A stretch of DNA of 44,690 nt from a virus, in the UHGV virus genome UHGV-0128395; one strand, written 5' to 3'. Below are positions 33,901 through 39,900 of the stretch, one piece after another; position 1 is the stretch's first letter; the number at the start of each line of letters is the position of its first letter. A program made the position numbers.

Positions 33901-36900
33901 GATGGAAATTATTTCGTTCTGAATAGCTTATTCCGCGCATATCTCCAACGACCCAGCACTCTGCTGTAGCCCCAAAAGATATGAATAAGAACATAGCAGT
34001 AAGAAATTGCTTCACACCAACCTCCTTAGTTTTGCGCAGGATACCATGAAAAAAGTTAACATTGGAAACGTACCAAAGATGCTCGTTCCGCTCTTTGAGA
34101 GCGGTACAATTGTGTTTTGTAGAGACTTTCCAGAATGGCAACGCCTGCATCAAAAACTTGGCGTTGACGTGCATGACTCGGACGCCAACGGAGCGTCTCA
34201 TACAATGAGTAGCGAGAATGGTGTTTTGCATGTGATAGGCGTGTTCAATGGCAAACTATCTACTATTGCCCATGAGTGCGCTCATATGGCATTCGATATC
34301 TGCTCAAGGGTAGGTGTTGATGTTGAACCAGGAAGAGCCAACGAGACTTACTGCTACTTAATGAGCAGGCTTGTTGAGTTCTGCGAGCGACATATCAGAA
34401 AGCCGGAGTGACCCGGCTTGATTATTACTTTTTGCTGTCTGGAGTTCGCTTATCCAATACCCAGCCATGACCTGGCTTTGTTGTTGGTGGAAGCCTTTCG
34501 TTGTCCTTGACGGTTGCAAAATTGTCTTTCTTACCGCCGCGTGGGCCAACTTCTTGGTATATTCCGCCGTTTTTTCCTGTGTTTTCACCTGGTTTTTTCG
34601 CCATGATATACCTCAACATACACCCGTTATTGGGCGATTAAATATTGATCTCATTTTGTAAGTAGTCAATATGGCCCAGGTAAATGCAAAAATTAACCCA
34701 CCTTCAGGTGGGTTTTTTGTACAAATCCTTCAGCGTATCAAACACCATCTTCTTAACAAGCTCTGACTGCTCATCAGCGATGCGTTCCGCATCGTCTCGA
34801 TAGCCTGAAATTTTGGATGGCTTTGATACAGCATCAGTCACTATCTGAACTAATTCTGAATTAAGAGAGCGGCCATTGGATTTGGCTCGCTGTTTTAGTT
34901 TTTCCTTTAATTCGTAAGGTAGCCGCAGATTAAATTGCGGGTCATCTCTTCCCATTCTTGATGCCTCGCTTTTGTGAGTGGATCGGCATCTTATTATCTG
35001 CTGGTTGCATCCTCAATAAGACCACAGTGGTCTCTTTGTTTGATTAATAATGCATCACTGTGGCAATGCTGCGGCGATTCCTTGTATCTGGAGCAAATTA
35101 AATGACAGACATTACAGCCAATGTTGTAGTGAGTATGCCTTCGCAACTCTTCACTATGGCGCGTTCTTTTAAAGCCGTAGCCAATGGCAAAATTTATATC
35201 GGTAAAATTGACACTGACCCGGTAAATCCTGAAAACCAGATTCAGGTTTATGTAGAGAACGAAGACGGTTCTCACATTCCTGTTTCGCAACCAATAATGA
35301 TTAACGCTGCTGGATATCCGGTATATAACGGACAGATTGCCAAATTCGTAACCGTGCAAGGCCATTCTATGGCTGTTTATGATGCGTATGGTACACAGCA
35401 GTTCTATTTTCCTAATGTGCTGAAGTATGATCCTGATCAGTTACGGCAGCAATTAGAAGACCCAGATGGAGCGAATAAATACCCAAAACTTCAGATAGCA
35501 AGATGGAGAGACAGTTATGATGTAAGAGGTTGGGGGGCTATTGGTGATGGTGTTCATGATGATACATCAGCTCTATCAGAATTACTTTCTGTTGCAACAG
35601 GTGGTGAAAAGATAGATGGGCGAGGGCTTACTTTTAAAGTATCAACTCTTCCAGATGTCAGTCGATTTAAAAATGCTCGTTTTTTATTTGAGAGAATACC
35701 GGGTCAGCCTCTTTTTTATGCTTCTGAAGATTTTATCCAGGGAGAGTTATTTAAAATTACAGATACACCGTGGTACAACGCCTGGACGCAGGATAAAACG
35801 TTTGTATATGACAATGTCATCTATGCGCCTTTTATGGCTGGAGACCGCCATGGTGTAAATAACCTCCATGTTGCATGGGTTCGCTCAGGAGATGACGGGA
35901 AGACCTGGACAACGCCGGAATGGCTTACAGATTTACATGAAAACTATCCCACAGTTAACTATCACTGCATGAGTATGGGGGTTGTCAGAAATCGCCTTTT
36001 TGCTGTAATTGAGACGCGGACCGTGAGCGGAAATAAACTGCAGGTTGCAGAGTTGTGGGATCGCCCAATGAGTCGCAGCCTTCGCGTTTATGGTGGTATA
36101 ACGAAAGCAGCAAATCAGCAAGTCGCTTATATTCGCATTACTGATCACGGATTATTTGCTGGTGATTTTGTCAACTTCTCAAACTCTGGTGTTACAGGTG
36201 TTACCGGGAATATGACGGTGACTACTGTTATTGATAAAAATACTTTTACAGTTACGACGCAAAATACCCAGGATGTGGATCAGAATAACGAGGGTAGATA
36301 CTGGAGTTTTGGTACATCATTTCACTCGTCACCATGGAGAAAAACCAGTCTTGGAACTATTCCTTCTTTTGTTGACGGAAGCACTCCTGTTACTGAGATT
36401 CACAGTTTTGCGACGATTAGCGATAACAGTTTTGCTGTTGGCTACCATAATGGTGATATTGATCCACGCGAGCTTGGGATACTCTATTTCTCTGATGCTT
36501 TCGGTTCTCCTGGTAGCTTTGTTCGCAGACGCATACCTGTAGAATATGAGGCGAATGCATCTGAGCCATGTGTAAAATATTATGATGGCATTCTGTATCT
36601 GACGACCAGGGGGACATTAAGTACTCAACCCGGTAGTTCATTGCACAGAAGCTCTGATTTAGGTACATCATGGAATTCTCTTCGCTTCCCAAATAATGTT
36701 CATCACTCAAACCTTCCTTTTGCCAAAGTTGGCGATGAGCTGATTATTTTTGGCAGTGAGCGCGCATTTGGTGAGTGGGAAGGAGGAGAACCTGATAACC
36801 GTTATGCAGGAAATTATCCAAGAACATTTATGACCAGAGTTAACGTCAATGAGTGGAGTCTGGATAATGTAGAGTGGGTTAATGTTACTGATCAGATTTA

Positions 36901-39900
36901 TCAGGGCGGAATAGTTAACTCTGCGGTTGGTGTTGGTTCAGTTTGTATCAAAGACAACTGGCTGTACTACATTTTCGGTGGGGAAGACTTTCTAAACCCA
37001 TGGAGCATAGGGGATAACAACAGAAAATATCCTTATGTTCACGATGGTCACCCGGCTGATTTGTATTGTTTCAGGGTGAAAATTAAACAGGAAGAATTTG
37101 TTTCAAGGGATTTTGTCTACGGAGCCACTCCTAACAGAACGCTTCCTACTTTTATGTCGACGTCAGGCGTGAGGACGGTTCCTGTACCCGTTGATTTCAC
37201 AGATGATGTTGCCGTCCAGTCACTGACTGTCCATGCAGGTACATCAGGACAAGTTCGCGCGGAAGTCAAACTTGAGGGTAATTACGCCATTATTGCGAAG
37301 AAAGTACCGTCTGATGATGTTACCGCTCAGAGATTAATCGTTAGCGGCGGTGAAACAACGTCTTCAGCAGATGGTGCAATGATAACGTTGCATGGTTCCG
37401 GAAGCAGTACTCCACGTCGCGCGGTATATAACGCACTCGAACATCTTTTTGAGAACGGAGATGTTAAACCTTATCTTGATAATGTAAATGCTCTTGGTGG
37501 TCCGGGAAACAGGTTCTCGACAGTTTATCTTGGCTCCAATCCTGTGGTTACCAGTGACGGAACATTAAAGACAGAGCCGGTCTCTCCTGACGAAGCATTG
37601 CTGGATGCCTGGGGTGACGTCAGGTATATCGCTTATAAATGGCTGAACGCTGTCGCTATAAAGGGGGAAGAAGGGGCGAGGATACATCATGGTGTAATCG
37701 CGCAGCAACTTCGTGATGTTCTTATTTCTCACGGACTCATGGAAGAAGAAAGCACAACATGCCGATATGCCTTTCTTTGCTATGACGATTATCCCGCAGT
37801 ATATGATGACGTCATTACTGGCCAAAGGGAAATGCCGCTGACTGATAATGACGGGAGCATCATTGTTGATGAGGATGATAATCCAGTGATGGTAATGGAA
37901 GACATCATTGAGCGCGTTGAAATAACGCCAGCAGGATCTAGATGGGGGGTCAGACCTGATCTCTTATTCTATATCGAGGCGGCATGGCAGCGCAGAGAAA
38001 TAGAAAGAATAAAAGCTAGGTTAGACTTAATAGAAGGGAAGCACTAAATGTTTCGTTGGCGTCAAAAATATGAACTGCTCACATAAAGAAGTAAGTACAT
38101 TGGCAAAAAACATTGACGTCAACGAAATTAAATATAAAAATTTAAATGCTTTTTAATGACAAGAAAAGTAACTAGTGGTAAAATAACGTAGGATACTAAT
38201 ATGTCAAGACTCAAGACTCAAGACTCAAGACTCAAGACTCAAGACTCAAGACTCAAGACTCAAGACTCAAGACTCAAGACTCAAGACTCAAGACTCGTTT
38301 TCCGTTGATGATAATGGATCAGGTAATATTTTTGTATGTGGAGATCTTGTAAATAGCAAAGAGAATAAAGTTCAGTTCAATGGAAACAATAACAAACTTA
38401 TTATAGAAGATGATGTTGAGTGTCGATGGCTTACCGTAATATTTAGGGGTGATAATAATTACGTAAGAATACATAAAAACAGTAAGATTAAAGGTGATAT
38501 TGTCGCAACAAAAGGTTCAAAAGTTATTATCGGTAGAAGAACGACAATAGGTGCAGGTTTTGAAGTCGTCACTGATAAGTGCAATGTTACAATTGGCCAT
38601 GACTGCATGATAGCAAGAGATGTTATTTTGCGTGCATCAGATGGGCATCCTATATTTGATATTCATAGCAAAAAAAGGATTAATTGGGCAAAAGATATCA
38701 TTATATCTAGTTACGTATGGGTAGGGAGAAATGTCTCTATAATGAAAGGGGTATCTGTTGGAAGCGGATCTGTCATTGGGTATGGGAGTATTGTAACTAA
38801 AGATGTGCCATCTATGTGTGCAGCAGCCGGTAATCCAGCAAAAATAATAAAAAGAAATATAATATGGGCAAGAACGGATAAAGCGGAGCTAATTAGTGAT
38901 GACAAGAGATGCTCCAGCTATCATGCGAAGCTCACGCAATAAATATAAAACATCATGCAGACATATTACCAATATTAATATAAGGTAATAAAAATATAAT
39001 TTACAAAAAAGCCCGTTGGAAGCGACGGGCATTAACCGCGGTAATGGATAAATTATTAATGTTTTTAGATTGTGAACGATATCATATTGTGCGGAAGTAG
39101 TGAAGTAACCATGTAAAATGATTGTTTCATAGCCTATGAGACACACAAGGCTTTGTGCTCTTCGATAGTTGTTAAGGCGGATCACTCTACCTTCTCATCA
39201 AGCCAATCCGCCCACCACTGCATCATTTCTCTGCGCTTATCGAGATACTGAGCATGGTTGTAAATTCCGCGTACAGATCCGCCGTTGGCATGTGCCAGTT
39301 GCACTTCAATAGCATCAGCAGGCCATTCGTGCTCGTTCATAATCGTGCTGAATTCATGCCTGAATCCGTGACCGCTTTCCAGACCTTCATAGCCGATTTG
39401 TTTGATCACAAGCAGTACCGCGTTCTCGCAGATTGGCTTCTTCTTATCGTTGCGCCCGGCAAAAACAAACTCTGATACTGGTTTGGTGATTGAGCTTAGC
39501 GTAGTGAGAAGTTCAACCACCTGGTCCGACATCGGGACAACATGAATCTTGCGTCCCTTCATCACACTGGCGTCGATAGTGATAATCCTGTTTTCAAAAT
39601 CGACGTTCTTCCATTGCATGGAACGAAGCTCTTTCGTTCTTAGGGCTGTGTAGCGTAAAACTTTGGTCGCAATGAGCGATACGATACTTCCTGAAAATGT
39701 TGCCAGTGCTTTGTTGAATGCAGGGATCTGGTCTGCAGGAAGAAACGGGAAGTTCTTCTTGCGGTATCCCTTCATGGCGTCAGCAAGGTCAGGTGCCGGG
39801 TTATATTTAGCCCTTCCGGTGACAATAGCGTAACGGAAAACCTCGCCGCATCTTCTGCGTGCTTTGTTGGCTCGCTCCATTGCACCGCGATCTTCAAATC

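Follow-up and report, generated by a model that had tools for sequence, protein, structure and literature searches.

The window analysed here, the whole 44,690-nucleotide stretch of virus genome UHGV-0128395, holds a P22-like prophage of 39,785 bp (39.8 kb) bounded by two copies of the CUS-3 att core. A complete tailspike gene lies towards the right-hand end of this prophage, followed by neuO, an integrase gene and argW. The features are as follows.

746..761, minus strand: second att core copy, at the opposite prophage end from argW, an exact CUS-3 match
34704..34955, minus strand: Mnt/Arc-family repressor gene of the immI region, directly upstream of the tailspike gene (Pfam Arc, Repressor_Mnt)
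35102..38047, plus strand: complete tailspike gene, CUS-3 siaK1 allele, 981 aa plus stop
35102..35440, plus strand: P22-type head-binding (tail-attachment) domain, aa 1-113 (Pfam PF09008, E=1.6e-66, full profile 1-113)
35441..35737, plus strand: start of the endosialidase module, a linker (aa 114-145) and then End_N_terminal, aa 146-212 (PF12218, E=8.9e-37)
35738..37087, plus strand: catalytic six-bladed beta-propeller, aa 213-662 (End_beta_propel PF12217, E=7.9e-233, profile 1-367 of 367)
36071..36319, plus strand: beta-barrel insertion within the propeller, aa 324-406 (End_beta_barrel PF12195, E=1.2e-46)
37088..37552, plus strand: stalk, or triple-beta-helix, aa 663-817 (End_tail_spike PF12219, E=7.5e-78)
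37553..38044, plus strand: C-terminal intramolecular chaperone, or self-cleaving domain, aa 818-981 (PF13884, PDB 3gw6)
38201..38942, plus strand: neuO, polysialic acid O-acetyltransferase, phase-OFF allele (PDB 3jqy, E=9.6e-161; Hexapep Pfam match)
38206..38296, plus strand: poly-psi tract of 13 AAGACTC copies between the tailspike and integrase genes (regular-expression count)
39182..40375, minus strand: tyrosine integrase gene of the IntS/CUS-3 int type (Pfam Phage_integrase, Phage_int_M, Arm-DNA-bind_3)
40501..40575, minus strand: argW, tRNA-Arg(CCT), the CUS-3 attachment site (ARAGORN)
40515..40530, minus strand: att core copy inside argW, reading TTGCAGGTTCGATTCC on that strand, an exact CUS-3 match

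The tailspike gene is real and intact, as the original prediction had it: ORF calling gave a single uninterrupted frame on the plus strand, running from an ATG at 35102 to a stop codon at 38045-38047 and encoding 981 aa. The ATG is preceded by GGAG, 9 nt upstream, and a scan for promoters and terminators around the gene returned consensus-level matches only. The ORF is 99.0% identical in nucleotide and 98.8% in amino acid sequence to siaK1 of CUS-3 (CP000711), and the protein is 100% identical to RefSeq WP_097478951.1 from E. coli SCU-124. Length (981 aa) and domain order are those of CUS-3 SiaK1, and the downstream neighbours neuO, int and argW with its att core are likewise the same. The endosialidase chimera is an already known, published and named protein, CUS-3 SiaK1, and not a new one; it was reportedly described in Stummeyer et al. 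2006 and King et al. 2007, and reviews also cover it. The original prediction did not identify the chimera as this published protein. No NCBIfam model matched the tailspike, which means only that this library cannot name the protein.

Relative to CUS-3 SiaK1, 12 of the 981 residues differ (V9I, P43T, I59V, M66I, T98A, P121T, A207V, D454G, V480A, G767R, T807I and A832T), about half of them within the head-binding domain, and all 12 substitutions spare the mapped catalytic and cleavage residues. Nucleotide divergence from CUS-3 is 5.6% in the head-binding domain and 0.4% in the remainder of the gene; among CUS-3-type prophages the endosialidase module is thus far more conserved than the head-binding domain attached to it.

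The domain architecture bears out the predicted fusion of a P22 head-binding module to an endosialidase. Residues 1-113 are 75% identical to P22 gp9 (75.2%), with still higher identity to Sf6 gp14 (91%) and HK620 gp9 (90%), and aa 114-980 are ~63% identical to endosialidase NF of the lytic phage K1F (endoNF, gp17; PDB 1V0E/3GVL/3GW6), rising to 70% in the propeller. The junction, which had been placed at about 120 aa, was located at aa 113/114, where identity to P22 gp9 ends with ...YDPDQ and homology to K1F endoNF starts with LRQQL; tailspike residue 114 aligns with K1F residue 214, the start of the K1F gp17 alignment. Profile searches against endosialidase and peptidase S74 models, the check proposed for this claim, gave End_beta_propel (E=7.9e-233) and Peptidase_S74 (PF13884, E=1.6e-10, aa 818-878). 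Furthermore, structure searches matched endoNF 1v0e/3gvl over aa 145-817 (E=0), the endoNF C-terminal chaperone domain 3gw6 over aa 698-979 (E=8.1e-95), Sf6 gp14 7sg7 over aa 1-118 (E=1.6e-64) and the P22 gp9 head-binding domain 1lkt at the N-terminus (E=1.9e-44), with PDB 8tvr also among the matches of the N-terminal domain. Experimental structures cover aa 1-118 and 145-979 at 56-91% identity, and the Pfam and structure scores are far above chance level.

Alignment to endoNF placed its active-site residues H350, R549, E581, R596 and R647 (listed, with their roles, in PMC12632334) at H250, R456, E488, R503 and R554 of the present protein, all identical. S911 and K916, the Ser-Lys dyad of endoNF (PMC8326128), align with S818 and K823 of the VVT|SDGTLK motif, so that the cleavage pair is conserved and, together with the Peptidase_S74 and 3gw6 matches, upholds the predicted C-terminal intramolecular chaperone. 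In the K1F record the boundary between mature protein and C-terminal domain is T910|S911, equivalent to T817|S818 in the alignment, and the endoNF crystal chains stop at the position aligned with T817; the mature tailspike is predicted to end at this residue. Phage endosialidases (endo-N-acetylneuraminidases) belong to CAZy family GH58.

The catalytic module, stalk and C-terminal chaperone of K1F endoNF are homologous to those of the tailspike, whereas its N-terminal adaptor, a T7 gp17-type domain (PMC5380687), is unlike the one found here. Compared with endoNF the present protein has seven inserted residues at aa 423-429 and eight at aa 925-932, and endoNF Q853 corresponds to M760. In the tailspikes of P22, Sf6 and HK620, the sequence held in common stops at the conserved ...YDPDQ junction, in agreement with an N-terminal domain shared by CUS-3, HK620, Sf6 and P22 and a catalytic domain shared by CUS-3 and K1F (PMC5380687). 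The receptor-binding parts of P22, Sf6 and HK620, which the phage records label tailspike or endorhamnosidase, are unlike the endosialidase present here. They are right-handed beta-helix O-antigen endoglycosidases. Pfam and structure searches found no similarity to P22, Sf6, HK620 or any other beta-helix tailspike past aa ~125, and an O-antigen tailspike was rejected on that ground.

The original prediction had further concluded that the prophage is K1-capsule specific and its host probably a K1 (ExPEC) strain. We examined the co-occurrence of endosialidase DNA with the polysialyltransferase gene neuS in 5,426 complete E. coli genomes. Endosialidase DNA was present in 194 and neuS in 329, and a combined query matched 330 genomes, from which set arithmetic gives neuS in 193 of the 194 endosialidase carriers. 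On the strength of this co-occurrence the inference of a K1 host holds, and K1 specificity is likewise supported by sequence, with 98.8% amino acid identity to siaK1 of the K1-specific CUS-3. The ExPEC label, however, found no support in the window: the two closest genomes are those of SCU-124, from a healthy student's rectal swab, and A42, from a marsupial.

Specificity for something other than K1 polysialic acid, such as the alternating alpha-2,8/2,9 polymer of K92, O-acetylated polysialic acid or an O-antigen, was weighed against these data. A related endosialidase, 59.6% identical to the tailspike, is found on phi92, whose isolation host was a K92 strain; 14 of the 329 neuS-positive genomes carry a divergent neuS (80-90% identity), which may be of K92 type; and the allele bears its 12 substitutions together with the 7-residue insertion relative to endoNF. 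Nevertheless, beyond aa 113 there is no O-antigen tailspike similarity, the active-site residues are the same as in endoNF, and the CUS-3 enzyme to which the protein is 98.8% identical has endo-alpha-sialidase activity annotated in its GenBank record (ABQ88383.1) with direct-assay evidence, citing PMID 16689790. Moreover, the carriers have overwhelmingly K1-type neuS, with 311 of the 329 matches at least 99% identical. A different specificity is accordingly very improbable.

The neuO gene named in the original prediction is present, immediately downstream of the tailspike gene: translated in frame, it matches the NeuO structure 3jqy. From its ATG at 38201-38203 the reading frame meets a stop after about 35 codons, whereas the catalytic body is encoded in a different frame, which is stop-free from 38205 until it terminates at 38940-38942. 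AAGACTC is repeated 13 times here, as compared to 19 times in CUS-3, 33 in SCU-124 and 18 in phiv205-1. Because neuO is ON only when the repeats number a multiple of 3 (PMC8653822, PMC13001214), 13 repeats place it in the OFF frame, and neuO in the window is phase OFF.

The 16-bp att core is present at both prophage ends, and the copy inside argW agrees with the reported insertion of CUS-3 at this tRNA gene (PMC9659370). The true start of the integrase gene is probably at about 40339, because SCU-124 and CUS-3 both have an annotated homologue of 1158 nt; the stretch itself is 100% identical to the RefSeq-annotated SCU-124 stretch. Full-length ORFs for homologues of terminase, portal, scaffold, coat, gp4, gp10, gp26, gp14, gp7, gp20 and gp16 occupy 19991-33601 and form an apparently intact P22-type structural module. 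They share ~96% identity with CUS-3 and 99% with the SCU-124 prophage, whose annotation names the counterparts P22 major capsid, gp4 family, gp10 and DNA transfer proteins. In the immI region, CUS-3 has ant, whereas the present prophage has a single mnt without ant; nucleotide identity to CUS-3 is only 71% there, and close similarity returns from 35055. The early and nin regions are also mosaic relative to CUS-3, with a porin and a Dam gene. Over its right half the window matches SCU-124 at 99.6%, and its left 20 kb is at most 66% covered by any single complete genome in the collection.

These data bear on whether the ORF is a relic, that is, an intact-looking gene in a decaying, non-inducible CUS-3-like prophage that makes no functional virion tailspike, with neuO the one gene of consequence for the host. 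Decay is reported to be common among CUS-3-like prophages, neuO often being all that is kept (PMC9659370), and the tailspike gene is interrupted by IS elements in phiv205-1, M15 and VTB96815v; an intact ORF is therefore no proof of inducibility. However, the prophage retains its two att cores, neither the integrase gene nor any P22-type structural ORF is shortened, and the tailspike reading frame is free of frameshifts and premature stops, with all catalytic residues kept. The 0.4% nucleotide divergence of the endosialidase part from CUS-3 is consistent with a recent common ancestor or with purifying selection, although taken alone it is compatible with decay. We regard a relic as unlikely.

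The gene product is thus almost certainly a receptor-destroying tailspike, belonging to a P22-like temperate podovirus of the CUS-3 type that is integrated at argW. From homology to P22 gp9 and K1F endoNF we infer catalysis, self-cleavage and virion attachment for this allele, the catalysis being endo-cleavage of alpha-2,8-polysialic acid. The polypeptide would trimerise under the guidance of the C-terminal chaperone domain (aa 818-981); once the stalk had folded, the S818/K823 pair would cleave T817|S818 and free the chaperone domain. The mature trimer (aa 1-817) would then dock through aa 1-113 onto a tail hub of the gp4/gp10/gp26 type, which is encoded in the same prophage, and the virion would tunnel across the capsule and so reach the outer membrane. 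In the lysogen, slippage of the heptanucleotide repeats would switch neuO ON, leading to O-acetylation of the same polysialic acid polymer; published work has linked this to lower K1 phage infection, and neuO function is treated in PMC8653822, PMC9659370 and PMC13001214.

Together, tailspike and neuO reliably mark the source strain as one that produces the K1 polysialic acid capsule or did so until recently, and they show that it carries the mobile contingency locus that controls O-acetylation of the capsule. The K1 capsule is a major virulence factor of E. coli causing neonatal meningitis and urosepsis, and relatives of the endosialidase serve as polysialic-acid-specific reagents. The protein is also a textbook case of modular tailspike evolution.

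A further comparison concerns ORF7 of phage vB_EcoP_ZX5 (MW722083, PMC9782041), which is 99.5% identical to nt 522-2914 of the tailspike gene (aa ~175-971); the alignment spans 2,393 nt without gaps and contains 12 mismatches. ZX5 is recorded as a temperate Uetakevirus and belongs to another genus than the P22-like prophage; its ORF7 tail fiber/spike has 1039 aa and an N-terminal adaptor that is longer than, and different from, the one present here. The 99.5% identical segment excludes the N-terminal adaptor of either protein as well as the final ~30 codons, identity dropping to about 50% at tailspike aa 140-179 and to about 79% in the last 40 aa. CUS-3 is not mentioned in the ZX5 paper (PMC9782041). 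The pattern of identity suggests, with somewhat better than even probability, that the endosialidase module (nt 522-2914) was very recently exchanged between Lederbergvirus (P22-like) and epsilon15-like Uetakevirus phages, both temperate podoviruses lysogenising K1 E. coli. If true and general, this would amount to a dated, breakpoint-resolved swap of a receptor module between temperate phage genera within one capsular serotype.

On the Lederbergvirus side, such an exchange would concern the prophage described here and CUS-3, and on the Uetakevirus side vB_EcoP_ZX5 and related prophages.

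The tailspike gene (35102-38047, + strand) is a single, uninterrupted ORF of 981 aa with an ATG start and a GGAG 9 nt 5' of the ATG. Its product was divided by Pfam as follows.

Pfam domains of the tailspike
aa 1-113, Head_binding (E=1.6e-66)
aa 146-212, End_N_terminal
aa 213-662, End_beta_propel (E=7.9e-233)
aa 324-406, End_beta_barrel, inside End_beta_propel
aa 663-817, End_tail_spike
from aa 818, Peptidase_S74

In parallel, a Protein Data Bank search matched aa 1-118 to the N-terminal domains of the Sf6 and P22 tailspikes, aa 145-817 to endoNF, the endosialidase tailspike of phage K1F (1v0e, 3gvl; E=0), and aa 698-979 to a construct of the chaperone domain of endoNF (3gw6; E=8.1e-95). 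The original prediction, a P22-type head-binding module on a K1 endosialidase with a C-terminal chaperone, coincides exactly with the Pfam division and agrees with the Protein Data Bank matches, and is therefore confirmed far beyond chance. An O-antigen-specific tailspike was excluded for this gene by both searches.

The chimera is already known as a named, published protein. By megablast against phage records, the full gene shows 99.0% identity to the siaK1 gene carried by Enterobacteria phage CUS-3 (CP000711), labelled 'endosialidase tailspike protein' in the CUS-3 record with direct-assay evidence (PMID 16689790), and 99.7% identity to phage vB_EcoP-720R6. The protein differs by 12 substitutions from CUS-3 SiaK1 and by 2 from its 720R6 counterpart, and it is identical to WP_097478951.1 of E. 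coli SCU-124. A review gives CUS-3 as the standard example of tailspike module exchange, with an N-terminal domain common to CUS-3, HK620, Sf6 and P22 and a catalytic domain common to CUS-3 and K1F (PMC5380687). The observation is confirmed and its interpretation supported, for a protein that was known beforehand.

The local alignment with K1F gp17 begins at tailspike aa 114, opposite K1F residue 214, and aa 1-113 are 75.2%, 90.4% and 91.2% identical to P22 gp9, HK620 and Sf6, respectively; aligned in this way, the fusion point is aa 113/114, immediately past ...YDPDQ. The key catalytic residues of endoNF, as listed in a deep mutational scanning study of this K1F protein (PMC12632334), are H350, R549, E581, R596 and R647; endoNF residues were placed on the tailspike by alignment.

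Catalytic residues of endoNF and their tailspike counterparts
endoNF H350, tailspike H250
endoNF R549, tailspike R456
endoNF E581, tailspike E488
endoNF R596, tailspike R503
endoNF R647, tailspike R554
endoNF second shell (Q330, D331, H527, S528, K585, N699), 6 of 6 identical in the tailspike

A substrate specificity other than K1 polysialic acid is very unlikely, the tailspike being 98.8% identical to the assayed enzyme with an identical active site. At the maturation site, T910|S911 and K916 of endoNF align with T817|S818 and K823; in the K1F GenBank record the mature protein gives way to the chaperone domain at T910|S911, and S911 and K916 form a serine-lysine dyad needed for self-cleavage (PMC8326128). 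The tailspike differs from endoNF by insertions of seven (aa 423-429) and eight residues (aa 925-932). By analogy with its homologues, the C-terminal domain would nucleate trimerisation and stalk folding, after which the S818/K823 pair would cleave behind T817 and release the chaperone domain. The mature trimer would then attach to a P22-type tail via aa 1-113, and the propeller would cut alpha-2,8 polysialic acid, allowing the virion to cross the K1 capsule.

The gene differs from that of CUS-3 at 29 nucleotides, unevenly spread: the first 339 nt hold 19 of them (5.6% divergence, against 0.4% over the other 2,607 nt). Thus, in its divergence, the head-binding domain goes with the virion module (~96% identical), and almost no change is seen in the endosialidase module. 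Furthermore, nt 522-2914 of the gene (window 35623-38015) are 99.5% identical to the gene for the tail protein in vB_EcoP_ZX5. This phage is a temperate Uetakevirus, and its N-terminal adaptor is unrelated. Such a module on a different adaptor points to recent exchange between genera, a mildly interesting case that fits the established paradigm without challenging it. The ZX5 paper noted the endosialidase domains and did not mention CUS-3. Some K1 genomes contain up to 4 places matching the endosialidase module.

Two copies of the 16-bp CUS-3 att core, at 746 and 40515, bound a prophage of 39,785 bp. The right-hand copy lies within the following tRNA gene, which is argW, the CUS-3 insertion site (PMC9659370).

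39182-40375, - strand, tyrosine integrase
40501-40575, tRNA-Arg(CCT)

Identity to CUS-3 is 98% across 35055-40530 and 96% across the structural module (20434-30946), and the early, nin and immI regions form a mosaic. Each ORF for a P22-type virion protein, from small terminase through gp16, is full length; together they are 99% identical to SCU-124 genes annotated as P22 capsid, gp4-family, gp10 and DNA-transfer proteins; therefore the N-terminal adaptor fits the tail for docking.

It is conceivable that the prophage is decayed and non-functional, although every relevant ORF is intact in the window. Copies of the tailspike gene in other K1 lysogens are interrupted by insertion sequences: phiv205-1 (844-6239 of comparison sequence L009), NZ_CP185789 (M15) and NZ_CP178648 (VTB96815v). 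This pattern suggests repeated tailspike inactivation in resident prophages. The interrupting elements carry transposase genes in phiv205-1 and are IS903B and IS3 in other K1 lysogens.

Downstream of the tailspike, neuO (38201-38942, ATG at 38201) contains 13 AAGACTC copies at 38206-38296. Translation from the ATG ends after ...SRLVFR, and the acetyltransferase body, which matches the NeuO crystal structure 3jqy (E=9.6e-161), lies in another frame. Full translation occurs only with a repeat number divisible by three (PMC8653822; PMC13001214); with 13 repeats, neuO is therefore phase OFF in the window, and one repeat fewer would bring it back in frame. Elsewhere, CUS-3 has 19 repeats (OFF), SCU-124 33 (ON) and phiv205-1 18 (ON). 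ON-state NeuO acetylates the polymer that would be the propeller's substrate. Two recent studies show lower susceptibility to lytic K1 phages as a result, interpreted in one of them as superinfection exclusion (PMC9659370; PMC13001214).

The host was examined in 5,426 complete E. coli genomes, using neuS, which encodes the polysialyltransferase, from the UTI89 kps locus as the K1 query. The endosialidase part (35500-38047) was found in 194 genomes (181 at a coverage of at least 80%), neuS in 329, and a joined query matched 330; by inclusion-exclusion, 193 of the 194 carriers are also neuS-positive. The exception without detectable neuS is probably strain 998 (NZ_CM132938.1), alone in having a single matching place among the best 60 of the 330 genomes, and its capsule may have been lost or switched. 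SCU-124, the closest genome, has two places matching the joined query, consistent with neuS carriage. The endosialidase occurs in ~59% of neuS-positive genomes, in line with a neuO prevalence of 43.5% among 8,659 K1 genomes (PMC13001214). Inference of a K1 host is thus well supported; the accompanying label 'ExPEC' is not, as it names a pathotype, which the window does not reveal. A rectal swab of a healthy student and a marsupial were the sources of the closest genomes.

Several further loci were observed in the prophage.

13170-13757, + strand, phage Dam-type N6-adenine DNA methyltransferase (PF05869, E=5.5e-65), nin region
15638-16780, - strand, full-length Gram-negative porin (Porin_1, Pfam E=2.2e-151)
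18555-19157, + strand, ORF past the lysis cassette with a Thoeris anti-defence 2-like domain (PF11195 Tad2-like, E=2.4e-21)
33626-34231 (- strand) and 34007-34411 (+ strand), among several small immI-region ORFs without family match
34704-34955, - strand, Mnt/Arc repressor

The immI-like stretch that separates gp16 from the tailspike (33602-35054) is unlike that of CUS-3, with one repressor and no ant gene. A NUMOD4-domain (homing-endonuclease-like) gene lies between the gp10 and gp26 homologues of SCU-124 (34045-34702 of comparison sequence L007) and is absent at the matching site in the window (~28387-28484) and in CUS-3. The methyltransferase segment is not common to CUS-3. The porin gene, missing from CUS-3 and the SCU-124 prophage, sits in a low-GC stretch (~40%) flanked by the Q antiterminator (15051-15449) and lysis genes, and seems to encode a lysogenic-conversion porin of Lc/NmpC type. 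The SCU-124 counterpart of the Tad2-like ORF is annotated DUF2829.
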